A stretch of 36,225 nucleotides of DNA from Acidimicrobiia bacterium (GTDB taxonomy: Bacteria; Actinomycetota; Acidimicrobiia; Spongiisociales; ZC4RG35): positions 1 through 36,225 of the forward strand of contig JAOUGY010000002.1 of assembly GCA_029865445.1 (NCBI GenBank), given 5' to 3'. The notes below the pieces were generated by a model. That model saw nothing but the letters and a program-made list of their open reading frames with translations. It did not search any database and was not told where the DNA came from. The position numbers and the translations under genes were made by a program. The number at the start of each line of letters is the position of its first letter. The stretch's first letter is position 1. Below are positions 437 through 29,307 of the stretch, in pieces.

Positions 437-467
437 GCTGCGCATCGCGCACAGCCCGCCGCGTGGC

Positions 468-485
468 CGAGCGAAGCGAGGCCCC
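468..485. repeat. 18-mer CGAGCGAAGCGAGGCCCC abutting the stop of a minus-strand gene
   Basis: Exact second copy at 17463-17480. Both are preceded by GCGTGGC, and both end 0-4 nt from the stop codon of a minus-strand CDS. Confidence 0.7.
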
Positions 486-1315
486 TAGATGATCTCCATG
501 ATGGCGGCGATGTCGTGGGGGCCGAGTCCGGCCGCGTCGGCCTCGAGCATGACCGCAGCGGCCTCCCCGGTCACCCGGCCCGCTGGACGGCGCTCGTCGG
601 CGAGGCGGAGGTCCTTGCTCATGAGCCCGACCGTGAACAGCGGCGTGAAATCGCGGGCCGCCAGCGGACCGGCCTTGTAATCGAGCAGTCTGGGCACCGC
701 CCCCGCTCTCAGCAGTTCTATGCAGGCCTCCACGTCGAGCCCGGCATCCTCCATTGCGAGGATCGCTTCGCCGATTGCCACGAGATGGGTTGTGAGCAGC
801 CGGTTGGTGATGAGCTTCATCTCGAGACCGGCGCCGTTGACGCCGAGGTGGTGGACGGCCGTCGAGAAGGTCGCCAGCAACGGTCGAAGGACCTCCACCG
901 CCGACTCGGCCCCTCCCAGCATGATTGCGAGTGTTCCGGCCTCGGCATGGATCGACGTACCCGACACCGGGGCGTCACAGAAGGCAATCCGGCGGTCGGA
1001 GGCCATCGACGCGACGCGACGCGACCCGTCCACCGAGATAGTCGAGAGATCTGCGCAGACCGTCCCGGCTCCGAGCATCGGAATCAGCGACCCGTACACC
1101 TCCTCGACGTGCTCGGTGTTCGGAAGCGAGGACATCACGACGCTCATTCCGGCGAGGTCTGAAAGGTGCTCAGACACCTCCACACCCGCCTCCGCCGCCC
1201 GTGACCGGGCATCGTCGACGGGGTCGACGCCCACGACGCGGTGACCGGCGTCGTTGAGGTGCCGCGCCATCTGAAAGCCCATCCGCCCCAATCCGACAAA
1301 CCCGATCTCAGCCAC
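485..1315 (-). CDS. NAD(P)-dependent beta-hydroxyacid dehydrogenase (3-hydroxyisobutyrate / tartronate-semialdehyde / sulfolactaldehyde reductase family)
   Basis: 276 aa. N-terminal Rossmann motif IGFVGLGRMG, family-typical length and C-terminal all-helical half. GTG start overlaps the upstream stop by 8 nt. Confidence 0.85.
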   Translation of the reverse strand: MAEIGFVGLGRMGFQMARHLNDAGHRVVGVDPVDDARSRAAEAGVEVSEHLSDLAGMSVVMSSLPNTEHVEEVYGSLIPMLGAGTVCADLSTISVDGSRRVASMASDRRIAFCDAPVSGTSIHAEAGTLAIMLGGAESAVEVLRPLLATFSTAVHHLGVNGAGLEMKLITNRLLTTHLVAIGEAILAMEDAGLDVEACIELLRAGAVPRLLDYKAGPLAARDFTPLFTVGLMSKDLRLADERRPAGRVTGEAAAVMLEADAAGLGPHDIAAIMEII

Positions 1316-5302: not shown

Positions 5303-6219
5303 CGGCGGCAGCAATGGACAGTCGACCCCGGGTCCCGTTCTATCGCCGACCGGTGGCGGCTCGGATCCTCATGCCGATCGCCGTCATCGTCGTGTGGTAC
5401 CTCGTGTACTGGACGCTCGGGTCCCGTATCTTCGAACCACCTCATCGAGTGTTCGAGTTCATGTGGAACGAGCTCACCCTCGAAACACGGCTTCGAAACG
5501 GGAAGGGCCCGTCGAACCTGTACCAGATGTTCGGACTGACCGTGGTTCGACTGTTCGCCGGCTTCGCCATCGCCATGGTGGTCGGCACCGTGATAGGACT
5601 GGCGATGGGCCTGTCCAAGTCTGTCAACGCCTTCTTCCATGACTGGGTGATGGCGGTTCTGGCCATGCCGGCCCTGGTCTGGGCCTTGTTCTTGGGATTG
5701 GTGTTCGGGCCGCAGGGAAATCAGGCACCCATCTACGCGTGCATCCTCGCCGGTATCCCATTCGTGATCATCAACGTGCGAGAGGGTGTTCGCAACACCC
5801 CGAAAGAGCTGTTCGACATGGCCCGCGCTTTCGGAGTGCCCCAGAACAAAATCACCCGGAACGTGCTGCTTCCGTCTCTGATGCCATTCCTGTTTGCCGC
5901 GGTGCGATACGCATTCTCGGTTGGCTGGAAGGGCCTCGTCATCGCCGAGGTCTTCGCGTCGGACAGCGGCATGGGGTGGGCGATCAAGTTCTGGTACGAC
6001 GCCCACCAGACGCGTGGCGTGATCGGGTACGCGTTGTTCTTCGTGGCGTTTGCCCTCGCACTGGAGAAGCTCCTCTTCGAGCCGCTCGCCGAGAAGGCCT
6101 TCAAGTGGCGCCCGCGGGTCGGAGACGTCGGCGTGGTCGAAGAGCAGTTCCTCCTCGACCAGACCGTTGAGGGCGCCTTGGAGGTCGAACAATTCACGGG
6201 AGGAGAATCAGATGGCTGA
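5299..6219 (+). CDS. ABC transporter permease (second subunit)
   Basis: Paralogous to the preceding permease. ATGA overlap at 5299-5302. Confidence 0.85.
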   Translation: MTAAAMDSRPRVPFYRRPVAARILMPIAVIVVWYLVYWTLGSRIFEPPHRVFEFMWNELTLETRLRNGKGPSNLYQMFGLTVVRLFAGFAIAMVVGTVIGLAMGLSKSVNAFFHDWVMAVLAMPALVWALFLGLVFGPQGNQAPIYACILAGIPFVIINVREGVRNTPKELFDMARAFGVPQNKITRNVLLPSLMPFLFAAVRYAFSVGWKGLVIAEVFASDSGMGWAIKFWYDAHQTRGVIGYALFFVAFALALEKLLFEPLAEKAFKWRPRVGDVGVVEEQFLLDQTVEGALEVEQFTGGESDG

Positions 6220-8128: not shown

Positions 8129-9240
8129 CAGATTCCGTATCCCAAGCCCAACTCGGCGTCCCAGCGGCGGAGCTGCGCCAGGATCGGTGGCGTGACTGGC
8201 ACACCGGCCCCTATGTTCTCTTCCTCCGCCACGGCTTCGGGCTCGCCGGCGATGTAGATCCGGCTCTGATCGGGTTCCTTGGCCGAGCCTCGAATCAGGT
8301 CGAAGGTCACGTCCATGTCCGCGGCCACTTGCTCGGGGGGCCGGAAACCTGCCACCTTGATCGCTCCCATGAAGTGACCCATCGCCGGCGGAGCCTCACC
8401 GGAGGCCCCGGCGATCCGGTCGGACAGCGGAGATCCGGCGAGCGCGCCACACAACAGCTCCGCCATCAAAGACAACCCGAAGCCCTTGTGGCCTCCCGAC
8501 TCCGTCCCCTCCCCACCCAACGGAAGCAGCGGGGCGGCATACGTGAGCGTGTCGTTCTCGTCAAGGTCTGGGGTGCCTGCGAGCGAGGACACCCATCCTT
8601 CGGGAAGTCCCCGGCCCTCGCGTAGCGCCGTTTCGATTTTGCCGACAGCCACTGCGGATGTGGCCATGTCCAGGTAGAAGTCGGTGTCCCGACCCGGGAT
8701 GGTGACCGCCAGCGGGTTGGTTCCGAGGATCGAATCCACCCCGTATGTCGGCGCCACCCGGCGCCCGCTGTTCGACAAGCTCAAACCGATGAAGCCTCGC
8801 TTCATCGCCCGGTGAGCCCAGTAGCCGGCATACCCGAAATGACTGCTGTTGCGAACCGCCACGAAACCGGCCCCGTGCTGGTCGGCCATGCCCATTGCCT
8901 CGTTCATGGCGCGTGCGGACACGACGATCCCGATTCCGTTTCCTCCGTCCAGTACGCCGGTGGTGGGGCTGCCGGCCTCGAACCTCATGTCGGGCTCCGT
9001 GGCGATCACACCCCGCTGGAGTCGCACCAGGAAGTAGCTGGTCCGGGCCACACCGTGGCTGCGGATGCCCCGCAGGTCGGCACTGATCAGTACGTCGGCG
9101 ACCAGAGCCGCGTCGTCGTCCGGCACGCCGAGAACCGCAAATGCGTCCTTCACGTAGGCTCGAAGGACATCGGCCCCGATCCGTACCGTTCCTTCGGGTA
9201 GTGAATGAGATTCGACCACAGACCTCCTCGAGCGAATCAT
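8128..9240 (-). CDS. Ldh_2 family (malate/L-lactate/sulfolactate) dehydrogenase, ComC-like
   Basis: 370 aa. The motif SADLRGIRSHGV and the overall length are typical of Ldh_2. It is the first gene of a 3-gene operon with the split decarboxylase. Confidence 0.75.
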   Translation of the reverse strand: MIRSRRSVVESHSLPEGTVRIGADVLRAYVKDAFAVLGVPDDDAALVADVLISADLRGIRSHGVARTSYFLVRLQRGVIATEPDMRFEAGSPTTGVLDGGNGIGIVVSARAMNEAMGMADQHGAGFVAVRNSSHFGYAGYWAHRAMKRGFIGLSLSNSGRRVAPTYGVDSILGTNPLAVTIPGRDTDFYLDMATSAVAVGKIETALREGRGLPEGWVSSLAGTPDLDENDTLTYAAPLLPLGGEGTESGGHKGFGLSLMAELLCGALAGSPLSDRIAGASGEAPPAMGHFMGAIKVAGFRPPEQVAADMDVTFDLIRGSAKEPDQSRIYIAGEPEAVAEEENIGAGVPVTPPILAQLRRWDAELGLGYGI

Positions 9241-9282
9241 ACAAAATCGATTCCATCAGATTTGCTGCTGGAGCCTCAGGTC

Positions 9283-10404
9283 ATGCCGCTCGACCCGATC
9301 GGGGCTCGACCCCGGCGGGCGCCCGTTCGAAAGCCCATCCCGATCTTGTTTCTGACACTGGTGGTGTCGGGAGCTTTCATCCTGACGCAGCCCACGCCAC
9401 CGGCTTTCGAGTGGACCGCCGTGCCCCTGCCGGATGGTGCCAACCTCGACAGCTTGGTGGCGACCCAGGCCGGATTCGCCGTCGCCTCCGGGGCGTACGC
9501 CGACGGTTCGATCTGGACGTCTGCCGACGGCGAGGAATGGGTGAGGATTCCGCTCCCCCGGGCGCCCACCCGGGTCATCCCGGACGGCGACGATCTCGTG
9601 ATCTATGACACCCGGACCGCATCCCGGATCACGGCTGGGGGAGGCATCACAGAACTCGACCTGCCACAACTCCTCCGCACCGGCTACGGATCCGGACGAC
9701 CGGGCATCGTCCCTGGCCGGGCCGGTCTGATCGCCCACTCCGCGATGGGTGACCTGTACCAGGCCGGCCGTCACGGACCCTTCCGGCTGGTCGTCGGATC
9801 GGACCAGTGGAAGACCGCGACGGACATCTCGTTCGGATCGCGATGTTCCCCACCAGGGCGCGTCGGACCGGACCTTCCACCCGTGATCTCCACACCGACC
9901 GGATATGTGGCCTTCATCGCCGCCAGAGACGCATCGGCGGTATGGCCCATCTGCGAGCCCGTGCCATGGACATCCGCCGACGGTTCTACCTGGAGCCGCC
10001 AGGCTACAGAGTCTCCATTTGGCGTCGGTGCCTACATCTCGGACATCGCCTGGAACGGCGATCACTGGGTCGCAGTCGGAGGCGTCGCATTCGACGCTCC
10101 CGCCCTGTGGATATCGGATGACGGGCTCACCTGGCTCCGGCGCAACGCGCCATCGGCCGGAGAACCGTACGAGCTGGTCGCCGTTTCCGCCGGTCCGTCC
10201 GGATTCATCGCCATCGGTCGGTTGCGGGAGCGACCCGGCCTCGCCGGATGGGCTTCGGCGGACGGCTCGTGCTGGGAAACGCTCCCCGAAGAAGTGGCCG
10301 GACGGAGCGTCGCATTCAGCGGCGACCGCGTACTGCTCACTGACCGAACCCTGTCCGACACCACCTGGCTCGGAATCCTCCAGCGCCCCCTCAGCTCTTG
10401 CTGA
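9283..10404 (+). CDS. Membrane-anchored hypothetical protein with beta-propeller-like W-x-S-x-DG-x-x-W repeats
   Basis: N-terminal TM segment IPILFLTLVVSGAFIL. Four repeats: IWTSADGEEW, PWTSADGSTW, LWISDDGLTW, GWASADGSCW. ATG 9283 was chosen because the longer ORF would overlap the divergent gene. Confidence 0.6.
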   Translation: MPLDPIGARPRRAPVRKPIPILFLTLVVSGAFILTQPTPPAFEWTAVPLPDGANLDSLVATQAGFAVASGAYADGSIWTSADGEEWVRIPLPRAPTRVIPDGDDLVIYDTRTASRITAGGGITELDLPQLLRTGYGSGRPGIVPGRAGLIAHSAMGDLYQAGRHGPFRLVVGSDQWKTATDISFGSRCSPPGRVGPDLPPVISTPTGYVAFIAARDASAVWPICEPVPWTSADGSTWSRQATESPFGVGAYISDIAWNGDHWVAVGGVAFDAPALWISDDGLTWLRRNAPSAGEPYELVAVSAGPSGFIAIGRLRERPGLAGWASADGSCWETLPEEVAGRSVAFSGDRVLLTDRTLSDTTWLGILQRPLSSC

Positions 10405-10405
10405 G

Positions 10406-10489
10406 AAGCAACAAGCAACAAGCAACAAGCAACAAGCAACAAGCAACAAGCAACAAGCAACAAGCGACAGGCAACAGGCAACGGGCGAC
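10406..10489 (+). repeat. Heptanucleotide tandem array (AAGCAAC)x8 perfect + 4 degenerate units
   Basis: Read directly from the sequence. Units 9-12 are AAGCGAC AGGCAAC AGGCAAC GGGCGAC. The array starts 1 nt after stop codon TGA 10402-10404. Confidence 0.95.
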
Positions 10490-10580
10490 AGCTGAGGAAC
10501 GAGGACTCTCCGCCTCACGGCTTCGCCGGACTCCCCTGCCGTGCGAGAAACGAGACCCACCGCCACCCGCCTCCCTCGAG

Positions 10581-10616
10581 TTTCCTCCCCCAGCGGGGGA
10601 GGCGGCGCCGAAGGCG
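10581..10616 (+). repeat. Hairpin module H1 (CCTCCCCC-AGC-GGGGGAGG) + H2 (CGCC-GAA-GGCG)
   Basis: The 22-mer TTTCCTCCCCCAGCGGGGGAGG is identical to 29170-29191. At both loci it is followed by a short tri-loop hairpin. Confidence 0.85.
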
Positions 10617-10638
10617 ACGGAGGGGGAGAAAGCCCACC

Positions 10639-10659
10639 GCGCACAGCGCACAGCGCACG
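10639..10659 (+). repeat. Short heptamer array (GCGCACA)x3, last unit imperfect
   Basis: Read directly from the sequence. It occupies the same relative position as the GTACCCG array at 29248-29275. Confidence 0.75.
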
Positions 10660-10815
10660 GCGGCCCGGGCGCAGCTCGGGCCTAGACTCTCCCCAGCACG
10701 GATCGAGCGAGACCAGTTCGCCGAGGGCCGGCGTGGCGGTTACCGGGTGACGCCGCGACGGGACCAGCTGGTGGTGTCGCCGTCGACGTCGTCGACCCCA
10801 CCCGGACGAGGAAAC

Positions 10816-15167: not shown

Positions 15168-16221
15168 CGTGTTTGGTATCGGCATGATCGGGCTGGGCCG
15201 GTGGGCCAACGCCCACGGGGACGCCGCTGCTCGCTCCGACCGCGTTCGCATCGTTAGCTGCTTCGCTCGGACAGAGGCTGCCAGGGACGACTACCAGCGG
15301 CGGTATGGCGTCGATCGGACCGCCGGGTCGATCGACGAGTTGCTGTCGGACCCGGACGTCCACGGGGTCGTGATATCGACACCCAACGACCTCCACGTCG
15401 AACATGCCCTCGCCGCCGTCAGAGCCGGCAAGCCTGCCCTCATCGACAAACCTGTGAGCGTCGACACCGCGGAAGGTCTCACCCTCTTGCGTGCTGCGGT
15501 TTCAGCCGGCGTGGCCGTCGGTGTCGCTCATCATCCCCGCCGCCTGGCCGGCCTCCGGGCGGCGAAACGTTGGCTCGAGTCGAGCGAATCGGGCAGGGTT
15601 CGCCTCGCCCATGCCGACTTCTCCAACAACCGGAGCGCCCACATGAGGCCCGATGCCTGGCACCGGTCGGCCCGTGGGTCCGAGGCCGGCGTTCTCATCC
15701 AAGTGGGTATCCACCAGGTCGAGAACATGCTGTACCTGCTGGGCCCAGCGGTCTCGGTGAATGCCCGCTTCCGTCATGACACGCTCGGTCCCACGATGCC
15801 GGACCTGGCGGCGGTGACGATGGTGCACGCCTCAGGGGCCGTGTCGAGCGTGACGAGCAGTTGGACGACCCCCGGGTACTTCTCGGTCGAGCTCCTGGCA
15901 ACAGGCGGCAACCTCACGTATCGCCTCGACCACCGCAGGTGGACGAGCGGCGACGTCGACGACTTCGGCGAGGCCTGGCTCCATCCCACCGATGGGGAAC
16001 GAACGCCCCTCCCGACAGGCAAGGGCGACCCGTTGAGAGAGCAACTGGAGGAACTACCTGCCGGAACGATGGAGGTCGACGTCGTTGCGGGCCTGCGGGC
16101 AACCATGGTGGTGGAAGCGTCGGTTCAATCGGCCCAGTCCGGTGGCGCCGCCATCGACCTCGCCTCTCTCGCCCAAGCCGCCGGCGCCACCCCCGAAGAG
16201 ATCAGCCTGCTCCTGACCTGA
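15160..16221 (+). CDS. Gfo/Idh/MocA family oxidoreductase
   Basis: GIGMIGLGRWA Rossmann start and LIDKP motif. The start is ambiguous (GTG 15160 or GTG 15169). Confidence 0.8.
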   Translation: MVDVFGIGMIGLGRWANAHGDAAARSDRVRIVSCFARTEAARDDYQRRYGVDRTAGSIDELLSDPDVHGVVISTPNDLHVEHALAAVRAGKPALIDKPVSVDTAEGLTLLRAAVSAGVAVGVAHHPRRLAGLRAAKRWLESSESGRVRLAHADFSNNRSAHMRPDAWHRSARGSEAGVLIQVGIHQVENMLYLLGPAVSVNARFRHDTLGPTMPDLAAVTMVHASGAVSSVTSSWTTPGYFSVELLATGGNLTYRLDHRRWTSGDVDDFGEAWLHPTDGERTPLPTGKGDPLREQLEELPAGTMEVDVVAGLRATMVVEASVQSAQSGGAAIDLASLAQAAGATPEEISLLLT

Positions 16222-16467
16222 GTTGTCCCCCGGAGCGGAGCGAGGGGGGAAGGTTCCTGCCGGCCGGAGGCCGGGAGGTACGGGGCTTCTCAACGCGGGA
16301 GGCGGGTTTCTTGTGTGCCAGGTCCCGCGGGATGGCGCCGTTGCGAGTCTCCTGGTGCCGGCGGGTTGCGGGTGTCCACCTCACAGTGTGGTTCCGCGTT
16401 GAGCATTCCCCCTACCTGCCATCTCTCTTCGGTCGATGGCAGGGACCTTCCCCCAAGGGGACAACTC
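16220..16467 (+). repeat. Copy C (complete) of the structured repeat, closed by terminal inverted repeats. MITE-like element or structured ncRNA.
   Basis: The 11-bp TIR GAGTTGTCCCC (16220-16230) pairs with GGGGACAACTC (16457-16467). A further 17-bp pairing joins 16245-16261 to 16438-16454. The core is homologous to 103-293. Confidence 0.85.
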
Positions 16468-16494
16468 CAGGGGTCCGTGAGGCCTCGCACCGGT

Positions 16495-17373
16495 TCACAG
16501 GAAGACGTGGTCGGCCTGATCGACGAACGGCATGAACCCGAGCGTGGCGTATACGTGATTCGACGTCTGATTGTCCAAGTCTGTGTACAGGCACACCTGG
16601 AGGCCACGATCGGTGAGATGGCGCGATACGGCGGCCACGCACCCCTTGGCGAACCCCTTCCCGCGAAAGTCGGGCGGCGTGTAGACGGGTGCGATCCGGG
16701 CCACGCCATGGACCGGAGGGTTGTGGCCGGTTGCGTGCACGACCTGGCCTTCGTGCTCCCACACCCACAACCGCTCCTGCTCGACCAAACGCACCACGGA
16801 CGTGGCGGGAACGGTTTCTGGTCCCGGGTCATCTCGTCCGGCCTGGATGGCGGCTTCGGCTTCGAACACCTCCAGCCATGGTCGCACCACCTCCACGTCC
16901 TCGATGCGGGCGAGCCGCGCCCTGCCCGGAATTCCGGCTGGTTCGATCAACTCTCCAAGGAGGTGAAGCCGCGAGCGCTGCAGAACGCCCACCGCCCGAC
17001 CGGTCGCTGCCGCGAGGCGATCGGCGATCAAGCGAGCGGCGGGCAGAGCGCCATTGACTCCGACCGGAATCTCGCCACGGTCGAGAAGGGCCCCTGCGAT
17101 CGCATGGGCAGCTCGGTCTGACATCGGACCGGCAAACATCCCGACGGCCCTGCCGCCTTCCGCCAGCATGGCGGCTGAAGCCAGGACTCCATCCTCTCGA
17201 ACAAGTGCCCACCACTCGGACCGCTCCGACACCTCCCCGCGAGACCGGGAATCCGCGGTGATCCTCGCGACCGTCCCGATGACCGTCGTCGACAGCGGGT
17301 CCGCGGCAAGAAGCGGCTCGGCGAGCTCAGCGAACACCGCCGGGTCGTCGTAGAACGTGACTTCTACTCCCAT
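16495..17373 (-). CDS. GNAT family N-acetyltransferase (two-domain)
   Basis: Acetyl-CoA motif RGKGFAKG and C-terminal NQTSNHVYATLGF. Start is ATG 17373, or GTG 17376. Confidence 0.75.
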   Translation of the reverse strand: MGVEVTFYDDPAVFAELAEPLLAADPLSTTVIGTVARITADSRSRGEVSERSEWWALVREDGVLASAAMLAEGGRAVGMFAGPMSDRAAHAIAGALLDRGEIPVGVNGALPAARLIADRLAAATGRAVGVLQRSRLHLLGELIEPAGIPGRARLARIEDVEVVRPWLEVFEAEAAIQAGRDDPGPETVPATSVVRLVEQERLWVWEHEGQVVHATGHNPPVHGVARIAPVYTPPDFRGKGFAKGCVAAVSRHLTDRGLQVCLYTDLDNQTSNHVYATLGFMPFVDQADHVFL

Positions 17374-17462
17374 CACCGGAGGGTAGAGACCGCAGAATCT
17401 CGACGCCTTGCGATAAGCAGAACGCCGCGGCTACAGCTTCTGGCCCACGGCGCGTGGCGCAC

Positions 17463-17480
17463 CGAGCGAAGCGAGGCCCC
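17463..17480. repeat. Second copy of the 18-mer CGAGCGAAGCGAGGCCCC
   Basis: Exact match to 468-485. It lies 4 nt from the stop of the minus-strand CDF gene. Confidence 0.7.
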
Positions 17481-17484
17481 GATG

Positions 17485-18432
17485 TCAGTGCGCGGGGGCG
17501 CCGTCCCCGTGGTCGACGTGATTGGCGTCGTACAGGTCGGGTTCGAGGTAGATCCGGTGGGCGTGGGGCAACACCCGGCGAATCGCCGCCTCCACACCGT
17601 CGATGGCGTCGGCGATCTGGGAAGTCGACATCCCCCGATCGAATTCGATCTTCCCCGCCACGAGCAAGTCCTCAGGTCCGATGTGCTGGGTCTTCATGTC
17701 GATGATCCGTGCAACGTGCGGTGCACTGGTGGCCGCCGCCATCATCTTGGCGATATCCGAGGGTGTGGCTGCTTCGCCGATCAACAGCGACCGCATCTCA
17801 AAGGTGAGGACCGATGCGATCACCAACAGCAGCACGCCGATGCACAGCGTGCCGATGCCGTCCCAGATGGGGTCGCCCGTGATCGCCGCCATCGACACCC
17901 CCATGAGTGCGAGGATCAGGCCGAAGAGCGCCCCGGCGTCCTCCAACAGCACGACCGGTAGTTCCGGGGCACGCGAAGTTCGGATGTACTGCCACCACGA
18001 ACGTCCGGCGAGCAATGGACGGGCCTCACGAATGGCGGTCCGGAAGCTCAACCCCTCCGCCACGATCGCCACCAGCAGGACTCCGATCGCCCACGACAGG
18101 GACGAGACCTCGTGTGGGTGCCTGACCTTCTCGATCCCCTCGTACAGCGAGTAGACACCGCCCAACGCAAAGAGAACGAGGGCCACGACGAACGCCCAGA
18201 AGTACCGCTCGCGGCCGTACCCGAACTGGTGCTCATCGTCGGCGATCTTCTTCGCCCGCTTCCCCCCGAGGAGCAGCAGTCCCTGGTTCGACGTGTCGGC
18301 CACGGAGTGGATCGACTCGGCCAGCATCGACGCCGAGCCCGTCACGAGGTACGCGACGAACTTGGCCACCGCGATCGAGCCGTTCGCCGCCATTGCGGCG
18401 ACGATCGCCTTGGTGCCGCCTCCAGTTGCCAT
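17485..18432 (-). CDS. Cation diffusion facilitator (CDF) family metal efflux transporter
   Basis: Motif SASMLAESIHSVADT (HxxxD) in TM2, six TM segments, plus a cytoplasmic C-terminal domain. SD GGAGGGAG lies upstream. Confidence 0.9.
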   Translation of the reverse strand: MATGGGTKAIVAAMAANGSIAVAKFVAYLVTGSASMLAESIHSVADTSNQGLLLLGGKRAKKIADDEHQFGYGRERYFWAFVVALVLFALGGVYSLYEGIEKVRHPHEVSSLSWAIGVLLVAIVAEGLSFRTAIREARPLLAGRSWWQYIRTSRAPELPVVLLEDAGALFGLILALMGVSMAAITGDPIWDGIGTLCIGVLLLVIASVLTFEMRSLLIGEAATPSDIAKMMAAATSAPHVARIIDMKTQHIGPEDLLVAGKIEFDRGMSTSQIADAIDGVEAAIRRVLPHAHRIYLEPDLYDANHVDHGDGAPAH

Positions 18433-21309: not shown

Positions 21310-22269
21310 TCAGGCCCTCAGTTGAGGCATCACGTCGGTGGCGAACAGTTCGAGGCTGTCGTAGCGACCCATGTCGTAGAAGTAGAGGATCATGTCGGAA
21401 CAACCTTCCGCTCGATAGTCGCCCAGCATGTCCACGGCCTGATCCACCGTGACCGCGAAATGCTCTTCGGCGAACTCCTCGCCACTGCAGTTCCGCCGTT
21501 CACCCGCTACTGCGAGTTTGCGCGCCAGGTCCGCATCGTCTCGACCGATGACCGACATCATGTGGACCGAACGACCGATCTCCGTGTAGTCCCTCCCGAT
21601 CGCCTCGCAATGGCCCGCCAGAACGTTGGACTTGTGCCGGAAGTTGTCGATGTCGCCCGAGAAGTTGGAGAAGTCGCCGTACTCGGCGGCAATGCGCAGT
21701 GTCCGCCGTTCGCCGCCGCCGGCGATCCACAGCGGTGGATGGGGATCCTGCAAAGACCTGGGGCGAGTGATCGCGCCGTCGAGCCGATAACGGTCTCCGT
21801 TGAAATGAGCGACATCGGTCGTCCACATGGCCTTCATCACCTGAGCAGCCTCTTCCAGCATGTCGAGCCGAACACCGTCGGATGGGTAGTCGTAGCCGTA
21901 CCCTTTGAACTCCCCGACGGACCACCCCGCCCCGATGCCGACGTCGAGTCTGCCCTTGCAGATGGCGTCCACCGAAGCTGCGATCTTGGCGAGGAGAGCC
22001 GGGTTGCGGTACGGGATGCAGGTACACATCTGACCAAGTCGGACCCGGTTGGTGGTCGCCGCAAGAGCCGCCATCAGCGTCCACGCCTCGAACACCGACT
22101 CCTGAGAGGGAACCGGGTGGGTGTGGAAGTGGTCGTACACCCAGATCGAGTCATATCCGAGTTCTTCGATGGTCGAGGCCGTCTCCGTGATGCGATCCCA
22201 CTGGCGATCGACGGGGATTCCAACCAGGTCCATCTTCCATCCTTGCGGAACGAACGTCCCGAACCTCAT
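21310..22269 (-). CDS. Luciferase-like monooxygenase (LLM) class, F420-dependent-type oxidoreductase
   Basis: N-terminus MRFGTFVPQGW...YDSIWVYDHF. ATGA overlap at 22266-22269. The 737-aa track ORF is a chimera with a shadow frame. Confidence 0.85.
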   Translation of the reverse strand: MRFGTFVPQGWKMDLVGIPVDRQWDRITETASTIEELGYDSIWVYDHFHTHPVPSQESVFEAWTLMAALAATTNRVRLGQMCTCIPYRNPALLAKIAASVDAICKGRLDVGIGAGWSVGEFKGYGYDYPSDGVRLDMLEEAAQVMKAMWTTDVAHFNGDRYRLDGAITRPRSLQDPHPPLWIAGGGERRTLRIAAEYGDFSNFSGDIDNFRHKSNVLAGHCEAIGRDYTEIGRSVHMMSVIGRDDADLARKLAVAGERRNCSGEEFAEEHFAVTVDQAVDMLGDYRAEGCSDMILYFYDMGRYDSLELFATDVMPQLRA

Positions 22270-23420
22270 GCTTGTCTCCTTTCCAACATCCTGCCTCCGA
22301 TCGCAACGAAAACCGCCGCCAGGGCGACCATCACTCCTCCGAAGGCCCACGCCATCGAGTAGCCGGCCCGCTCGACGATCACGCCGAACGTGAGAGGGCC
22401 AAGGATGCCACCGCCGAACTGTCCGGCCCCGAGGATGCCCGAAGCGATACCCGGCGCGTCGGGTACCCGAGTCACCACCGCGAAATTGAGGAGGCTGGGC
22501 CAGGCCCAGGCGGTGCCGAAGACGAGCAAGGTCATGAAGAAGAGACCGGGTGCACTCCAGCTTCGACCCATCGCCGCGAACGCCACGGCTCCTCCGGCCA
22601 GCATCGCTGTCAACAAACCGAAATGAACCCCGCGGTGGCGATCGGCGATGAGACCCCATCCGACGCGGATGAGAACACCGATGCCACTCCCGGCCGAGAG
22701 GTACAGTCCGGCCACTCCTGCGTCGAGTCCTCCCGACACCGCAGACTCGACGTAGAAGGCGCCCAAGGACGCCGAGGCATTCACCGCGCAGAACGCTCCA
22801 AAGGACAGCATCCACACCGGTCCGCCCGGGACGTCGGAGCGCATGCCACGCCGAACCGGCAGTCCCGTCTCTCGCCTGGATCCGCCGGCGACGATCGGGA
22901 TCGCTGCCACACCGGCGAGGGCGAACGCCCACCGCCAACCGATGGTGAGCCCGATCGCAGGCACCGCGATTCCTGCGAGGAGAGTCGCGTACGGCCCGGC
23001 GGATTGCTTGATCGCGAAGCCGACGCCCTGGCGTCGCAGCGGGAAGCCCCGGGCGATGGCGAGGTTGGACGCCGGGAACGCGACGCCGTTGGCGATCCCG
23101 CCGATCACGAGGAATACCGCCATCGCCGCCCACGACCGCGCGAACCCAGCGATGCCGAGGGAGGCAAGCATGCTGAGGGCGGCACCGGCCGCCATGGCCT
23201 TGGGGCCGCCGAGACGCTCTGCCAGCCGGCCACCGGGGATGGTGGTGGACGCCGAGGCTACGTAATAGAGGGTGGCGAGCGCACCCAGTTCGGACTCGCC
23301 GAACCCGAGTTCGGGCCTGATGAACACGGCCATGGCCCCGGTCAGGAAGATGGGGAGCGCGCCGAGCACTATCGACAGCGTCGCCTGGAGCAGCGTGGCG
23401 ACTGGCCGCTCGGAGGTCAC
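22266..23420 (-). CDS. MFS transporter
   Basis: About 12 hydrophobic segments. Start set at the GTGA overlap (23417-23420). An alternative GTG start is at 23435. Confidence 0.85.
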   Translation of the reverse strand: MTSERPVATLLQATLSIVLGALPIFLTGAMAVFIRPELGFGESELGALATLYYVASASTTIPGGRLAERLGGPKAMAAGAALSMLASLGIAGFARSWAAMAVFLVIGGIANGVAFPASNLAIARGFPLRRQGVGFAIKQSAGPYATLLAGIAVPAIGLTIGWRWAFALAGVAAIPIVAGGSRRETGLPVRRGMRSDVPGGPVWMLSFGAFCAVNASASLGAFYVESAVSGGLDAGVAGLYLSAGSGIGVLIRVGWGLIADRHRGVHFGLLTAMLAGGAVAFAAMGRSWSAPGLFFMTLLVFGTAWAWPSLLNFAVVTRVPDAPGIASGILGAGQFGGGILGPLTFGVIVERAGYSMAWAFGGVMVALAAVFVAIGGRMLERRQA

Positions 23421-24613
23421 ACCTCCGGTCGCCACACAGCCACCACCTCGTCGGCTTCGAGCCGGGCGACATCTTCCGGCGACAACCCGAGCCGCTCGGT
23501 GAGGATCTCTTCGGTGTGCTCACCGAGCATCGGGGCAGGGTTCCGAGGCATCTCCCAGTCGGAGAACTTCACCGGCGACGGCGGATACCGAACCTCGCCG
23601 AGTGTCGGGTGGTCGTAGCTGGCGACCATGCCGCGCTCCTGGGTCTGGGGATCCGAGAACACACCTGCGAAGTCGTTGACCGGGGCCGACGGGATGTCGA
23701 ACTCGTCGAGGATCCTCACCCACTCGGCTTTGGTCTTTTGCCGGAACGCGTCTTCCAGGATCGGGACCACGTAGTCGCGGTTGGCGAGACGGGCGGCGTT
23801 GTCGATCGTCTTCGGGTCCTCTTTCAGGTCCGGCCGGTCGATGGCGTCGCACAGATTGCGCCAGAACTTCTCGTCCCGGGCGGCGACCACGACGTACCCG
23901 TCCGACGTCTCCAAAGCCTGCCACGGGACCATGTGTGCGTGGGCGGTGCCCTGGCGGTTGACTGCCTTACCCGTGTTCAGGTGGTCGAGGGCGTCGTACC
24001 CGAGCAGGGTGATCAGGCCGTCGAGCATGGCCACGTCGGCATGCCTGCCTTCCCCGTTGAGGCCCCGGCCGGCGAGCGCCGCCAGGACGGAGATGCAACA
24101 AAAGATCCCGCCTGTCAGGTCGGCGATCGGGACCCCGACACGCGATGGTGGACCGTCCGGCTCACCGGTGATGTCCATGTGCCCCGAATACGCCTGCACC
24201 ACGAGATCGAACGCCGCCTTGTCCCGAGCGGGCCCCGTCTCTCCGAATCCGGTGACCGACACGGTGATGATGTCGGGGTTCCGCTGTTTGAGGGTTTCGT
24301 GGTCGATCCCCAGCCGCTGCATCACACCGGGCCGGAAGTTGTCGACCACGACATCTGCCCGGTCGACCAGCCGGTAGAAGATGTCGAGACCTTCCGAGCT
24401 CTTCAGATCGAGCACGACACTCTTCTTGCCGCGGTTCATGAACAAGTGGATGGCGCTCTCACCGCCGAGCGGAGCGATCTTGGGGTTGCGGGCGGTGTCC
24501 CCGGTGAACGGCTCGACCTTGATGACCTCGGCTCCGAGCTCGGCGAGGATCGATCCACCGAATGTGCCGGCGATCACCTGCCCCAGCTCGATGATCGTGA
24601 TTCCGTTCAACAC
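23417..24613 (-). CDS. Family III CoA-transferase (CaiB/BaiF-like)
   Basis: N-terminus ITIIELGQVIAGTFGGSILAELGAEVIKVEP, 398 aa. Confidence 0.9.
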   Translation of the reverse strand: MLNGITIIELGQVIAGTFGGSILAELGAEVIKVEPFTGDTARNPKIAPLGGESAIHLFMNRGKKSVVLDLKSSEGLDIFYRLVDRADVVVDNFRPGVMQRLGIDHETLKQRNPDIITVSVTGFGETGPARDKAAFDLVVQAYSGHMDITGEPDGPPSRVGVPIADLTGGIFCCISVLAALAGRGLNGEGRHADVAMLDGLITLLGYDALDHLNTGKAVNRQGTAHAHMVPWQALETSDGYVVVAARDEKFWRNLCDAIDRPDLKEDPKTIDNAARLANRDYVVPILEDAFRQKTKAEWVRILDEFDIPSAPVNDFAGVFSDPQTQERGMVASYDHPTLGEVRYPPSPVKFSDWEMPRNPAPMLGEHTEEILTERLGLSPEDVARLEADEVVAVWRPEV

Positions 24614-24621
24614 GGGGAGCC

Positions 24622-24661
24622 AGTCATCGAGTCATCAAGTCCCCAAGTCAGCGAGTCGGCT
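24622..24661. repeat. Octanucleotide array AGTCNNNN x5
   Basis: AGTCATCG AGTCATCA AGTCCCCA AGTCAGCG AGTCGGCT. It sits in the only sizeable gap of the minus-strand operon, 8 nt upstream of the CoA-transferase start codon. Confidence 0.85.
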
Positions 24662-24722
24662 GGCCACGCGCGCGTTACCGAAGCCCAGGTCGGCTGGTGT
24701 CGGCCAAAGCGAGTGTTCATCG

Positions 24723-25817
24723 TTACCACTCCAGGGTCACCACCTTGCGGATCTTCGCGGACTCGTCGACGGCCCGGGAGATCTTGAGCACGTCGAAGCC
24801 CTCCTGGCCGGTGGCGAGGATCGGATCCTGGCGGTTCTGTCCGACGGCGTTGATGAAGGCGTGCGTCTCCTCTTGCATGGCACCAAAGTGCTCGCCGAGC
24901 GCCCAGTCGCCCGGCATGTACGAGCCGAGCATCGCCACGTTCATGGTCGCCCGCGGAACGTACGGCGATGGGATCGACTTGTGCGACGCCATGAGCACGT
25001 CCCGATGGTCGTCCTTCACGCTGATGGTGCCGTCCCGGCCGAACACCTCGAAGTCCATGCTCGCCACGTACGCGGGCCAGAACTCTGGCAACTCCCAGCT
25101 GACGCCGAGGTTGGCAACCGTCCCGTCGTCGTAGGTGAGCACACACCAGGTCGAGTCAACGGTCCCGTACTGCTCGTAGATCTTCCCCTTGGTGCTCCCG
25201 GCGGCGTACACAGTGGTGGGGCGCCGGTCGGGCAGATACCAGTTGAGGAGGTCGAACAGGTAGGTCATCGTGTTCACCGACGGGGTGGTCGAGTTGGCGC
25301 GGCTGATCACCGACTGGGCCACCGACTCCGCCAGGTAGATGGTGGCCTTCACGCTCGTCACATCGCCGACGTATCCCTTGAGCATGTGCTCTTTGATGGC
25401 GAGGTACCGGCGCCGGAACCGCTGGGTGAAACCGGTGTAGATACGGACCCCGTATTCCTCGGCGGCCGCCATCAGCTTGTGCGCTTCGTCGAGTTCGATG
25501 GTGAATGGCTTCTCGATGAGGACCGGTTTGCGCGCCTGGACCGCAGCCATCGCCGGCTCGTAGTGGGCGTTTTCGGTGGAGGCGATGATCACTGCATCCA
25601 CGTCGTCACGGGTGACGATGTCCATCGCATCGGTCGCCACCAGGTCGGCCTGGCACGACTCGCCGAGTCGCTTGGCCTTGGCTTCGTCGATGTCCGCCAC
25701 CGCCAGGAAGTTGACCGATGGATGCCGGTGGGCGATCTCCGCGCGGAGCGATCCGATCGTCCCCGCTCCGACCACGGCAACACCGACACCGCCTTCGATG
25801 TACCGACTCCTCGTCAT
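24723..25817 (-). CDS. Gfo/Idh/MocA family oxidoreductase
   Basis: VAVVGAGTIG Rossmann motif and LIEKP motif. ATGA overlap at 25814-25817. Confidence 0.85.
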   Translation of the reverse strand: MTRSRYIEGGVGVAVVGAGTIGSLRAEIAHRHPSVNFLAVADIDEAKAKRLGESCQADLVATDAMDIVTRDDVDAVIIASTENAHYEPAMAAVQARKPVLIEKPFTIELDEAHKLMAAAEEYGVRIYTGFTQRFRRRYLAIKEHMLKGYVGDVTSVKATIYLAESVAQSVISRANSTTPSVNTMTYLFDLLNWYLPDRRPTTVYAAGSTKGKIYEQYGTVDSTWCVLTYDDGTVANLGVSWELPEFWPAYVASMDFEVFGRDGTISVKDDHRDVLMASHKSIPSPYVPRATMNVAMLGSYMPGDWALGEHFGAMQEETHAFINAVGQNRQDPILATGQEGFDVLKISRAVDESAKIRKVVTLEW

Positions 25818-26713
25818 GATTCAGCCTGCTGCTGTCTCGCGGCTGCGCGCTCGGCGGCCTCCGCTCGTGCGATGACGACCCGGGCCACCCGGGCGACTGC
25901 ATAATCGACCATGCGTCCGTCGACGGCGATCGAAGCGGAGCCCTCTGCCTCTGCCTGCTCGAACGCCTCCAGCACCTTCCGTTGATACGCGACGACGTCG
26001 GCGCTCGGCGTGAAGACGTCGTTGATGACGGCAACCTGTGCCGGATGGATGGCGACCTTTCCGACATAGCCGAGCGTGCGGGCCAACTCGCTCTCGACCC
26101 GCAGCGCATCGAGATTCCGGAAATCCATGAACACAGCCTCGAACGGATGCTGGATCCCCGCCGCCCGGGACGACAGCAGCACTTGGGACCGCGCTTGCAT
26201 GAGTCCGGTGCCTTCGGGTGTCCACTCGCAGCCGAGGTCGGCGACCAGGTCGCCTTGCTCACCACCGCCGAACATCACGCATTCGACCCGGGTGGAGGCC
26301 ATCGCCATGTCGTACGTGTTGCGGACACCCAACCCGCTCTCGATGAGTGGGATGATCCCGATACTTCCCGCCTCGTGGCCGAACGCCATTTCGAGAGCAG
26401 TGAGCGCACCGTCGATCTCTTTGATCACCCCCGGCTGTTCGGCTTTGGGGATGACGAGCCCATCCACGCCCGCCTTCCCGGCCGCCACCACGTCGTCCCA
26501 CATCAAGCCGGTCTCGACCGCATTCGTCCTTACGAACAGCGGCACCGGCGAATCGGGAAGCTGCTCGAGCAGGGCCCGGGCGGTGGGCTTCTGATCGAGG
26601 GCGACGGCGTCCTCGATGTCGATGATCACGGCGTCGGTGCCCGATCGGATCGCCTTTTCGATGAGGTCCATCCGGTGACCCGGCGTGAACAACATGGAGC
26701 GGAGTGCCTCCAT
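25814..26713 (-). CDS. HpcH/HpaI aldolase / CitE-like acyl-CoA lyase
   Basis: N-terminus LFTPGHR...DAVIIDIEDAV, ~300 aa. Confidence 0.85.
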   Translation of the reverse strand: MEALRSMLFTPGHRMDLIEKAIRSGTDAVIIDIEDAVALDQKPTARALLEQLPDSPVPLFVRTNAVETGLMWDDVVAAGKAGVDGLVIPKAEQPGVIKEIDGALTALEMAFGHEAGSIGIIPLIESGLGVRNTYDMAMASTRVECVMFGGGEQGDLVADLGCEWTPEGTGLMQARSQVLLSSRAAGIQHPFEAVFMDFRNLDALRVESELARTLGYVGKVAIHPAQVAVINDVFTPSADVVAYQRKVLEAFEQAEAEGSASIAVDGRMVDYAVARVARVVIARAEAAERAAARQQQAES

Positions 26714-26725
26714 CGAATCAACCTC

Positions 26726-27697
26726 TCACTTGATTGCCATTGGATTCAAGGGTGACCCCACCGCCCGGGTGAACGGGAGGGGCGGTCCGCAGAACATGAA
26801 CTCGTAGACGCCATCGGCTGCACAGTCTTCGGCGAGCGGGTCGAGGTCGAATATCTCGCCGAGCCAAAGGCCCATCGCCGTGATGAACACGATGTGGAGC
26901 GGTTGCGCGACGTCCGGCGTCTGGTTCGGTCGCACCTCGAGACCCCAGGTGTCGGTGGCGACCGCTGCGATGTCTCGTTCGGCGACCCAGGGCACGCTCT
27001 CGAGGCCGAGGCCCGGGGCGTCTCCGCCCGCGTAGTCGCCCCACGTCCCGGCGGCGCGTGCCCTCGTCATCGCTCCGGTCCGGATGAACACGAAGTCCGC
27101 GACGCCGACCTCGAGTCCTGCCAGTTCACACGCACGGTCGAGATCCTCACCGGTGATCGCATAACCGGGCTCGAGCCAGTCGACCCCGCGTGCTCGGGCG
27201 ACGTCGAGCAGTACTCCGCGTCCAACCATGGAATCGCACGCGTTCGCGACCGAACCTTTCAGCGCCCCTTTGCTGCTGACCCACTCGGCGCCGAAGCCGT
27301 TGTAGATCTTGTTCTCGAAGACGACGTGCCCGGGGGCATCCCATTGCGTCCCGGATTGGAGGGGCATGATGATCAGATCGTCGGTCCCGCGAAAGTGCTT
27401 GTCGACGCCCCCGTAGAAGTCGCGGATGGACGATCCGGCGATGGCGTCGGCTCCGTCCCTGATCATCAGGTGGATCGGGTTGAACCGGCCGAGGTTGCCG
27501 GTTTGGGGGCCGTTCTCGTCGTACGGCAGCGCCATCGTGATCGTGCGGCCATCACGAACTAGTCGAGCGGCGGATACCACGTGTTCGGGCCGGACGAGGT
27601 TGAGGGTTCCCTTTTCGTCTTCGGTTCCCCAGCGACCCCAGTTGCCGTACTGCTCACAGAGCTCCCGAATCGTTTCGATGGTGGGCGCCTCTGACAC
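26726..27697 (-). CDS. Cyclase family protein (kynurenine-formamidase-like fold)
   Basis: The GTQWDAPGH motif resembles HxGTHxDAPxH. Start is GTG 27697, 5 nt after GGAGG. Confidence 0.7.
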   Translation of the reverse strand: MSEAPTIETIRELCEQYGNWGRWGTEDEKGTLNLVRPEHVVSAARLVRDGRTITMALPYDENGPQTGNLGRFNPIHLMIRDGADAIAGSSIRDFYGGVDKHFRGTDDLIIMPLQSGTQWDAPGHVVFENKIYNGFGAEWVSSKGALKGSVANACDSMVGRGVLLDVARARGVDWLEPGYAITGEDLDRACELAGLEVGVADFVFIRTGAMTRARAAGTWGDYAGGDAPGLGLESVPWVAERDIAAVATDTWGLEVRPNQTPDVAQPLHIVFITAMGLWLGEIFDLDPLAEDCAADGVYEFMFCGPPLPFTRAVGSPLNPMAIK

Positions 27698-27720
27698 ACA
27701 AACCTCCAGGTATCGACAAC

Positions 27721-27741
27721 GCGTCTCGCGAAATGAGACGC
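27721..27741. promoter_or_regulatory. Inverted repeat GCGTCTC-N7-GAGACGC in the leader of the minus-strand operon
   Basis: 7-bp perfect arms located between the predicted -10 box and the start codon. Confidence 0.35.
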
Positions 27742-27754
27742 AACCTGGCACCCC

Positions 27755-27784
27755 AGAATACGAGCCAGAACGACCTGGTGTCAA
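27755..27784 (-). promoter_or_regulatory. Predicted sigma-A-type promoter for the cyclase...SDR operon
   Basis: Minus strand reads TTGACA (27784-27779), an 18-nt spacer, then TATTCT (27760-27755). Confidence 0.45.
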
Positions 27785-27801
27785 CAGTCGGTGAAGTCCG
27801 G

Positions 27802-27830
27802 TTGACAGTATCCCTCTTGATCCGTAGCCT
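27802..27830 (+). promoter_or_regulatory. Predicted sigma-A-type promoter for the acyl-CoA dehydrogenase operon
   Basis: TTGACA (27802-27807), a 17-nt spacer, then TAGCCT (27825-27830), about 70 nt upstream of ATG 27904. Confidence 0.5.
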
Positions 27831-27903
27831 CGGTGACAGTCGTCGTCTCGATCAGTGAGACATGCCCTGTCTGCTGCCGGGACTCACGAAGGAAGGCAGC
27901 TGC

Positions 27904-29046: not shown

Positions 29047-29050
29047 GATG

Positions 29051-29106
29051 AGTCCCCAGCCCCCAGTCCCCAGTCGCCAGTCCCCAGCCCCCAGTCCCCA
29101 GTCGCT
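29051..29106 (+). repeat. Heptanucleotide tandem array, 8 units, organised as a 28-nt super-unit x2
   Basis: (AGTCCCC AGCCCCC AGTCCCC AGTCGCC) followed by (AGTCCCC AGCCCCC AGTCCCC AGTCGCT). The array starts 4 nt after stop TGA 29044-29046. Confidence 0.95.
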
Positions 29107-29169
29107 TGGCGTTGGGGCACGAGAACGCCGGTCCCGCAAGTTCCCACATCCGTCCAATCCACCATCCTG

Positions 29170-29207
29170 TTTCCTCCCCCAGCGGGGGAGGTGTCCCCGG
29201 AGGGGAC
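29170..29207 (+). repeat. Hairpin module H1 (CCTCCCCC-AGC-GGGGGAGG) + H2 (GTCCCC-GGA-GGGGAC)
   Basis: The 22-mer is identical to 10581-10602. H2 has a different stem sequence but the same tri-loop hairpin shape. Confidence 0.85.
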
Positions 29208-29247
29208 GGAAGGGAGACCGAGGCCCGCAGTGCCGGCTCCGGTCCAA

Positions 29248-29275
29248 GTACCCGGTACCCGGTACCCGGTACCGG
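29248..29275 (+). repeat. Heptamer array (GTACCCG)x3 + GTACCGG
   Basis: Read directly from the sequence. Confidence 0.9.
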
Positions 29276-29292
29276 CCTCACAAAGCGAGGCC
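29274..29292 (+). other. Hairpin GGCCTC-ACAAAGC-GAGGCC just upstream of the SD of the next gene
   Basis: 6-bp stem. SD GAGGAGG (29296-29302) and ATG 29308 follow. Confidence 0.5.
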
Positions 29293-29307
29293 CGATGAGG
29301 AGGACGC

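Follow-up and report, generated by a model that had tools for sequence, protein, structure and literature searches.

How did two gene junctions in one bacterial contig come to carry the same ordered series of 7-nt tandem repeats and hairpins, and is this series a regulatory device? The question arises in a 36,225-nt stretch of DNA from an Acidimicrobiia bacterium (GCA_029865445.1, contig JAOUGY010000002.1, positions 1 to 36,225 of the forward strand), referred to here as the window, in which two composite intergenic elements lie at 10402-10686 (site 1) and 29044-29307 (site 2). An earlier note on this DNA had proposed that such an element loads Rho, binds a ring-shaped protein or acts as a contingency locus. 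Our analysis points elsewhere: we estimate a probability of about 65% that sites 1 and 2 are both copies of a single mosaic repeat, intergenic, multi-copy and lineage-specific, comparable to bacterial interspersed mosaic elements (BIMEs) or to the REPIN elements and miniature inverted-repeat transposable elements (MITEs). The composite is most likely selfish or neutral DNA and not a dedicated regulatory RNA.

The two sites share an exact 23-mer (10580-10602 and 29169-29191), for which the chance expectation is none even with three mismatches allowed; the 22-mer described earlier is real and belongs to this slightly longer word. Homology between the sites extends over 56 nt at 82% identity. The ordered architecture does recur, as claimed before, and its recurrence is not due to chance. 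Within the homologous region, the second hairpin (H2) carries a compensatory change, with a G-C pair at site 1 replaced by a C-G pair at site 2. The conserved core comprises 51 nt made of a first hairpin (H1), H2 and a G-tract, and was represented by a covariance model named CM R1. All of the features that the earlier note had listed are present at both sites, and four arrays in the window are called by Tandem Repeats Finder (TRF) with scores of 133, 85, 52 and 43. The arrays contain at least three head-to-tail 7-nt copies, are intergenic and exceed the length expected by chance, as do long simple-sequence repeats (LSSRs). Site 1 reads as follows.

9205-10404, plus strand: upstream open reading frame (ORF), 399 aa, with no Pfam match, which looks like a secreted repeat protein
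10402-10404, plus strand: stop codon TGA of this ORF; the orthologues in loci L025 and L026 end at the same position
10406-10489, plus strand: upstream heptamer array (AAGCAAC), eight perfect units followed by about four decayed ones
10505-10579, plus strand: remnant of module B, a decayed inverted core-like arm with an A/C-rich linker
10580-10630, plus strand: core module (H1, H2 and G-tract), CM R1 64.8 bits, E 2e-15
10584-10602, plus strand: H1, CCTCCCCC-AGC-GGGGGAGG
10604-10618, plus strand: H2, GGCGCC-GAA-GGCGAC
10619-10629, plus strand: G-tract, GGAGGGGGAGA
10631-10662, plus strand: downstream heptamer array of GCGCACA/GCGCACG type, 4.6 copies by TRF
10662-10682, plus strand: terminal hairpin, GGCCCGGGC-GCA-GCTCGGGCC, 9 bp, followed by TAG

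TRF calls the upstream array as (AAGCAAC)x11 at 10406-10482 (score 133), beyond which it decays up to 10489. Its 84 nt are free of T (24 C, 18 G) and, in agreement with the earlier claim that it is unstructured, the predicted RNA is essentially unpaired. The 94 nt that follow had been taken for a spacer. They are in fact a decayed inverted core-like module: local alignment to the module B consensus scores 47, compared with 16.4 +/- 2.6 for shuffled sequences, and 0/1000 shuffles reach 47. The position given for H2, 10606-10616, covers only the inner part of the full hairpin. The 9-bp terminal hairpin at 10662-10682, which closes the element, was absent from the earlier description; it has at most four mismatches to the consensus GGCCCGAGCGAAGCGAGGGCC and is paired in both the minimum free energy (MFE) and the centroid folds. 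About 330 nt separate the site-1 array from the next start codon. Site 2 has the following parts.

29044-29051, plus strand: stop codon TGA of the acyl-CoA dehydrogenase gene (29044-29046), a G, and a relic ATGA (29048-29051)
29051-29105, plus strand: upstream heptamer array CAGTCCC/CAGCCCC/CAGTCGC, 7.6 copies
29106-29168, plus strand: linker, scoring 13 against module B with a shuffle mean of 14.1
29169-29219, plus strand: core module, H1 identical to that of site 1, CM R1 52.3 bits
within 29169-29219, plus strand: H2, GTCCCC-GGA-GGGGAC
within 29169-29219, plus strand: decayed G-tract, GGAAGGGAGA
29248-29273, plus strand: downstream heptamer array (GTACCCG), 3.7 copies by TRF
29274-29292, plus strand: variant of the terminal hairpin, GGCCTC-acaaagc-GAGGCC, followed by a Shine-Dalgarno-like GAGGAGG and the hydratase ATG at 29308

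Here the upstream array is called by TRF as (AGTCCCC)x7.6 at 29051-29103, with a 28-nt unit present twice as an alternative reading. Its 55 nt hold 31 C and 10 G and are partly paired in the MFE fold, and the distance from the array to the next start codon is about 200 nt. We considered the linker as a second module B and rejected it, its similarity not being significant (13 vs 14.1). A strong excess of C over G had been noted for both arrays; it holds at site 2 (GC skew -0.51), while at site 1 it is weak (-0.14), the whole window standing at -0.05.

The site-2 junction is informative when compared with relatives. There, the dehydrogenase and hydratase genes either overlap through TGATG (L073, L077) or are 2 nt apart, as TAG-AA-ATG (L086). 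In the window the same gap measures 261 nt, and the inserted block starts exactly at the heptamer array. The tetranucleotide ATGA is duplicated, once at 29048-29051 as a relic of the former hydratase start and once at 29308-29311 as the present start. Site 2 is thus shown to be an insertion of about 260 nt that split a formerly coupled gene pair.

Next to this junction, CCGATGAGG occurs as a direct repeat at 29291-29299 and 29314-29322; the two copies, 23 nt apart, lie on either side of the hydratase start, and the new Shine-Dalgarno-like GAGGAGG sits between them. This repeat may be a local duplication tied to the insertion.

Both sites lie between genes on the plus strand. Site 1 is preceded by the 399-aa ORF and followed by a thiamine-diphosphate (ThDP) enzyme gene, and site 2 is preceded by the acyl-CoA dehydrogenase gene and followed by the gene of a MaoC-like hydratase. 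The window has a G+C content of 65% and otherwise encodes ordinary transport and catabolic functions; its nearest relatives are uncultured Acidimicrobiia. A 7.1-kb contig of GCA_029858645.1, L024, has 99.68% identity to window positions 22111-29202.

Further copies of the composite were found in metagenome contigs. A single metagenome scan with a 24-mer yielded 19 loci, most of which come from four related samples (Ga0224500, Ga0224505, Ga0224510 and Ga0224512); the 19 loci hold 15-16 strong core copies representing about nine distinct loci. The modules follow a fixed order: stop codon, upstream array, module B, core, downstream array and terminal hairpin GGCCCGAGCGAAGCGAGGGCC. Module B is about 78 nt long (ATCTCCCCCCTCCCGGCTCCGCCGGACTCCCCCCGCTGGGGGGAGAAACAGAACCCACAACACGACGCCGCCACCGAG), and its first half is an inverted core-like module that the covariance model matches on the opposite strand. 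Module B and core fold together into one long branched hairpin (-75.6 kcal/mol and z = -4.4 as RNA, z = -3.8 as DNA), and none of the shuffled sequences is as stable. Tandem repetition of units is common (L214, L216, L222, L230). Contigs also repeatedly begin or end inside the element, L024 ending within H2, as is expected because a multi-copy repeat breaks assemblies.

With at most four mismatches, the terminal hairpin is confined to the window and the Ga02245xx contigs and is absent from 74 related Acidimicrobiia loci; likewise, no H1-like 22-mer (at most four mismatches) occurs in 74 related ThDP-enzyme loci covering about 0.8 Mb. A scan of reference genomes for full module B returned only L236, an Acidimicrobiia metagenome-assembled genome (MAG), and a chance hairpin match in L235, the window's lineage being essentially unrepresented among the species-representative genomes scanned. 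Rfam gave no match at gathering thresholds and, at E <= 10, only chance-level ones; the queries were the full window, sites 1 and 2, 10 related loci and a second repeat.

That second intergenic repeat family is a separate observation in the window. Its unit of about 174 nt occurs at 104-277 and 16282-16455 (84% identical), with a partial third copy at 354-436, and its terminal modules lie at 16222-16290 (plus strand), 16395-16470 (minus strand) and 300-366. In the convergent gap 16221-16495, the unit is placed between inverted terminal modules of about 70 nt which are built like the core, with a C-tract hairpin, a second hairpin and a G-tract, then CTCAACGCG. The element begins 2 nt past the stop codon at 16219-16221, is MITE-like and has no Rfam match. 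Stand-alone modules consisting of a GCGCAYC-type array and a terminal hairpin (GAGCGAAGCGAGGCCC) are also present at 440-488 and 17440-17487, directly adjoining the stops of the minus-strand genes 485-1315 and 17485-18432.

Since the heptamers of the two sites are completely different, the earlier note had concluded that the architecture, rather than the repeat sequence, is conserved. A comparison across copies, with each array oriented on its nearest core, contradicts this conclusion, as every heptamer type is found again, at an unchanged relative position, in further copies. Upstream, AAGCAAC is found at window site 1 and in L215/L227, L216, L219/L226, L223 and L230, and CAGTCNC or CCAGTCA at window site 2 and in L217, L221, L222, L230 and L232. 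Just downstream, GCGCAYC, GCGCACG or GCGCACA is found at window site 1 and, as GCGCAYC-type arrays 29-34 nt past H1, in L214, L215, L217, L219, L222, L223, L226 and L227, while GTACCNN takes this place as (GTACCAA)x3.7 in L216 and as GTACCCG at window site 2. Because the copies in L214/L222/L232 share with site 2 both an identical H2 and CAGTCCC arrays, the arrays seem largely to travel with the element.

An alternative reading of the arrays is that they form the platform of a ring-shaped protein related to TRAP or HutP that reads an NAG triplet every 7 nt. A TRAP site consists of 9-11 (G/U)AG triplets with spacers of 2-3 nt, and a HutP site of two sets of three UAG triplets with 4-nt spacers. 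AAG at site 1 and CAG at site 2 do recur with a 7-nt period, and the resulting 4-nt spacers fit HutP, not the 2-3 nt of TRAP. However, UAG is missing from both arrays, GAG does not recur periodically, and in the downstream arrays (GCGCACA, GTACCCG) no NAG triplet is periodic. Even near-identical genomes differ in copy number, and the units that related lineages carry at this place are unrelated ones (GACGCCA, TTGACCG, CAGGTCAA). The proposed check for HutP- or TRAP-like genes gave no candidate: among the 28 window proteins scanned, neither domain was found, nor was a transposase or Rho domain. We give this reading next to no credence.

The arrays vary in length. Across copies they range from 2 to 11 units. 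A comparison of array copy number between strains had been suggested, and it reveals differences: in L024 the site-2 array is 18 nt longer and has two substitutions while its flanks are otherwise identical (99.68% over 7.1 kb), and one metagenomic locus (L219, L224, L226) carries three different arrays in three samples. This polymorphism between close relatives bears out the variable-number tandem repeat (VNTR) half of the earlier VNTR-type contingency proposal. The other half, namely that array length switches expression of the adjacent gene by phase variation, appears highly improbable. The arrays lie past stops and not in promoter spacers or reading frames, with site 1 about 330 nt ahead of the next start; the flanking genes encode housekeeping-type catabolic enzymes; and it is not obvious how gaining or losing 7 nt in a 3' or intercistronic spacer could act as a switch.

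Heptamer arrays also exist apart from the core. Core-free arrays occur in related Acidimicrobiia (L083, L026, L025, L038), with (GACGCCA)x5 filling the whole stop-to-ATG gap in L083, and (AAGCCAG)x5.7 together with inverted (TTGACCG)/(CGGTCAA) arrays in L026. Among unit lengths that are not a multiple of three, period 7 is over-represented in the related loci. Conversely, 190/194 core copies outside the window's lineage have no adjacent heptamer array, and the four that lie near one are L018, L144 and L185, in Acidimicrobiia MAGs, and L180. Array and core are separable components. The core-free arrays in relatives, with the small number of outside cores near an array, indicate that the tendency to form heptamer arrays is a trait of the host lineage. 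Heptamers are described as the most abundant LSSRs in many bacteria, with polymerase slippage as a proposed origin (Mrazek 2007, as cited in PMC4679880).

Several other repeats in these loci were noted in passing. In L026, a relative without the core, 2291-2404 and 5836-5925 resemble foldbacks, in each of which a spacer of about 45-55 nt separates a tandem array of 7- or 8-nt units from the inverted array (units TTGACCG/CGGTCAA and CAGGTCAA/TTGACCTG); the second of them starts directly past the stop orthologous to window 10402-10404. At window 24618-24657 (L024 2508-2547), in a 109-nt gap between two minus-strand genes, an 8-nt array of AGTCATCR is followed by a partial terminal hairpin (GGCCAAAGCGAG), and a unit complementary to AGTCATCR, GACTCGAT, forms a 5.4-copy array downstream of the L221 core. 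Finally, a 21-nt tandem repeat with 2.4 copies (GATCCGCGAAATGACCGACCT) at 32613-32661 has a unit length divisible by three and is probably part of a coding region.

The core, as distinct from the composite, extends well beyond this lineage. A scan of species-representative genomes with the 22-mer found that Acidimicrobiia, Acidobacteriota and Oscillospiraceae share this layout, with H1 followed by a hairpin that varies and then by GGAGGGGGAG. A degenerate core pattern matched at least 117 loci, and among the matches listed most are Sphingomonadales and Caulobacterales, accompanied by Acidobacteriota, Dehalococcoidia and Acidimicrobiia. In an alignment of 94 members (A3), the 5' flank is (A/T)-rich with a consensus ending in T, the 3' end is GGAGGGGGAG, and H2 varies in sequence and length while its pairing is kept. 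We counted 110 both-sided changes in H2 against 41 +/- 7.5 in shuffled controls among A3 members, whose inclusion had required a stem of 4 bp or more; sliding the partners makes the signal collapse. Between the site-1 core and a Sphingomonas copy (L147), differences are confined to the flanks, the loop and one linker base.

Sphingomonas replicons have up to 14 core places per record, mostly with no annotated feature beneath. Cores are arranged as singlets and inverted doublets, with inverted pairs in the sphingomonad loci L128, L134, L139, L140, L200 and L210. Of 48 scorable copies only three are flanked by divergent genes, and neither strand is preferred. The behaviour of the core outside the window's lineage is REP-like (repetitive extragenic palindrome). 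A literature search by sequence words including GGAGGGGGAG returned irrelevant eukaryotic papers only.

Three individual core loci are unusual. In a Sphingomonadales MAG (L126 5043-6518), a core lies in frame inside a 491-aa protein, where it is translated as ...SPSALRAPPPRGEDRSSPLGGGGG...; by eye, the C-terminal part of the translation looks like a uracil-DNA glycosylase. In an Oscillospiraceae MAG (L012 5650-5900), a tandem array whose unit of about 81 nt contains an H1-type hairpin is bracketed by full cores, and the loops of the H1-type hairpins alternate between AGC and GCT, that is, both orientations. In an Acidimicrobiia MAG (L236, minus strand at about 5900-6100), a core variant has its H1 loop enlarged to 19 nt and is accompanied by a separate module B; the gap is flanked by what appear, by eye, to be ribosomal-protein genes, to which the element is apparently antisense.

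The structure of the core raises the alternative that its hairpins, with a possible G-quadruplex (G4) or triplex formed by GGGGGAGG...GGAGGGGG, stall replication and induce slippage, so that arrays arise anew at each core. Arrays do directly adjoin core ends in L215/L227, L018/L218 and L216, and two or more Acidimicrobiia lineages, whose units differ, show the association. In vitro, moreover, very stable G4 structures are formed by (GGGGACT)n, which is complementary to the site-2 unit (PMC4692102). The same units at the same positions in many copies argue instead for inheritance with the element and not for a new origin, and both the array-free state of 190/194 outside cores and the core-free arrays in relatives speak against it. 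We regard it as quite unlikely.

A more speculative idea starts from the near identity of the 51-nt module (C-/G-tract hairpin, covarying hairpin and mirror G-tract GGAGGGGG) across Alphaproteobacteria, Acidobacteriota, Dehalococcoidia and Acidimicrobiia. The module might be the end recognised by a widespread mobilisation system that has yet to be described, or a triplex or G4 read by a conserved host factor. In Acidimicrobiia the same mechanism might then produce the arrays, for instance if the template slips repeatedly in the course of insertion or repair, in place of ordinary replication slippage. We hold this to be a long shot.

Two further structural candidates were rejected. The first was a switch or attenuator in which 5' TTTC(C)TCCCCC pairs with either the G-strand of H1 or 3' GGGGGAGAAA; we dropped the idea because the TTT/AAA flanks are unconserved outside the lineage, and in full copies the 3' G-tract has its proper partner in module B. 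The second was a purine triplex from the mirror GGGGGAGG...GGAGGGGG, for which half of a terminal inverted repeat is the simpler account; we retain the triplex solely as part of the speculative idea above.

We return to the mosaic repeat as the preferred explanation. An imperfect palindrome of about 130 nt, consisting of the module B arm, a linker and the 51-nt core, forms the centre of the element and is predicted to fold into one branched hairpin as single-stranded DNA or RNA. It is bracketed by position-specific arrays, AAGCAAC or CAGTCNC upstream and GCGCAYC or GTACCNN downstream, and closed by the GC-rich terminal hairpin. The family may have spread by transposition or recombination, carrying its arrays along, and these would subsequently lengthen or shorten by replication slippage in a host lineage that is presumably prone to slippage of 7-nt units anyway. 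Effects on the host would be by-products: stem-loops 3' of a gene may pause or terminate transcription or shield the upstream mRNA from 3' exonucleases, and the unstructured C-rich tract past the stop may be counted among such effects.

Several observations weigh against this explanation. The composite is sense to the upstream gene in 8/9 distinct loci, a bias not obviously to be expected of purely neutral DNA and thus a hint of selection at the RNA level or of oriented insertion, and arrays start 0-5 nt past stops at several independent loci. In the L026 orthologue of site 1, a different array, (CAGGTCAA)x4, stands right after the same stop, followed by an inverted (TTGACCTG)x2, while L025 has no array there; this different unit after the same stop may reflect targeting or a functional reason outside the mosaic-repeat explanation. 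The duplicated ATGA at site 2 has a length of just 4 bp and could be due to chance or to selection for a retained start, and around copies with module B and core (L214, L216, L219, L230) we found no consistent target-site duplication. REP super-families are defined by a GTAG or CGTC tag at the end of the palindrome (PMC3733652), and neither tag is in the core consensus of the 94 A3 members. A tblastn search of about 1.6 Mb of loci with E. coli RayT gave nothing below E = 0.8, a search that distant REP-associated tyrosine transposases (RAYTs) could escape, and where inverted cores enclose ORFs, in L126 and L166, these are ordinary genes. In addition, the metagenome contigs may come from a different species than the window.

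The first two of these observations bear directly on the remaining alternative, a functional 3' untranslated or intercistronic RNA in which the array loads Rho, in the manner of a rut (Rho utilisation) site, and the hairpins pause, terminate or stabilise, the whole being a portable terminator cassette under selection. In its favour are the sense orientation and the position of the arrays immediately past stops, the T-free site-1 array with its C>G composition and predicted unpaired state, and the frequent contact of the terminal hairpin with the stop of a convergent gene (L216, L227, L229, window 464-488). A scan of site 1 for canonical promoters and terminators found none, and with no canonical U-tract terminators predicted in the region another mode of termination would be needed. 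Against it, the site-2 genes are translationally coupled in three relatives, so that a terminator would cut off the downstream gene, and the element is absent at orthologous positions in relatives. The arrays range from 2 to 11 units with varied composition, the skew at site 1 being just -0.14, and the core occurs in either orientation in other lineages, with composite or core antisense in L018 and L236. Rho loading is not indicated, as the sense orientation at 8/9 loci is set against a recent insertion, at site 2, between genes coupled in relatives. We nevertheless keep a terminator or Rho role as a minor possibility, because of the sense bias and the arrays 0-5 nt past stops, for which the mosaic repeat does not account.

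How does the family compare with known systems? Like the REP, REPIN and BIME repeats of Proteobacteria, it consists of multi-copy, GC-rich extragenic palindromes lying mostly downstream of genes, in convergent or co-directional gaps. They occur as singlets, as inverted doublets folding into long hairpins and as clusters, and form mosaics with short motifs; they break short-read assemblies and have occasional in-frame intragenic copies (L126). The two traits shared with REP/REPIN as defining features are the multi-copy extragenic location and the inverted doublets forming a long hairpin. Unlike REP/REPIN, the family has no GTAG/CGTC tag and no RAYT was found (about 1.6 Mb, tblastn). The core unit is a 51-nt double hairpin with a G-tract, whereas REP is a single palindrome of 20-40 nt; near-identical units exist in several phyla, and the Acidimicrobiia mosaic adds heptamer microsatellite modules.

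The arrays themselves resemble heptameric LSSRs, which are 7-nt tandem intergenic units usually 0-50 bp past a stop that vary between relatives and occur as inverted pairs. The short tandemly repeated repetitive (STRR) sequences of cyanobacteria are heptamers. Known units include GGGAATC in Xanthomonas and GGGGA(C/T)T in Nostoc, in arrays that are intergenic, mostly 0-50 bp from the stop and length-variable (Rehm et al. 2015, PMC4692102), and TAACTGA in Beggiatoaceae (PMC4679880); AGTCCCC, the unit at site 2, is exactly complementary to the Nostoc unit GGGGACT. The arrays described here differ in being modules of a larger repeat with a fixed order and position-specific units, in having the C-rich strand as the coding strand and in the presence of several units within one genome.

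With MITEs and foldback elements, the family shares a non-coding length of about 130-260 nt, terminal inverted modules (in full copies module B is the inverted image of the core, in the way of a MITE terminal inverted repeat), insertion at a tight gene junction and a candidate 4-bp duplication (ATGA, site 2); the inverted arrays of L026 flank a spacer as in foldback elements. The differences from MITEs are the lack of a consistent target-site duplication and of an autonomous partner, and the decayed left arm of the window copies. Mycobacterial interspersed repetitive units (MIRUs) are also actinobacterial, located between operon genes, tandem and variable in copy number as VNTRs, but their units are 40-100 bp with small ORFs overlapping stop and start, compared with 7-8 non-coding nt here. 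Relative to these known systems, the microsatellite modules at fixed positions of a mosaic and the double-hairpin unit found near-unchanged across phyla are distinctive.

Taken together, these results add an actinobacterial mosaic family, a REPIN/MITE-like element that has microsatellite arrays among its fixed modules, and they document a cross-phylum double-hairpin module that is unannotated and absent from Rfam. For annotation, the family accounts for long 'intergenic regions' and contig breaks in Acidimicrobiia MAGs, and it cautions against taking such repeats for riboswitch-like regulators. Metagenomic strain typing could make use of the length-variable arrays. Should the family turn out to have a mobilising enzyme, or to act in termination or mRNA stability, it would become a tractable case of selfish repeats remodelling operon junctions, as in the gene pair split by about 260 nt.

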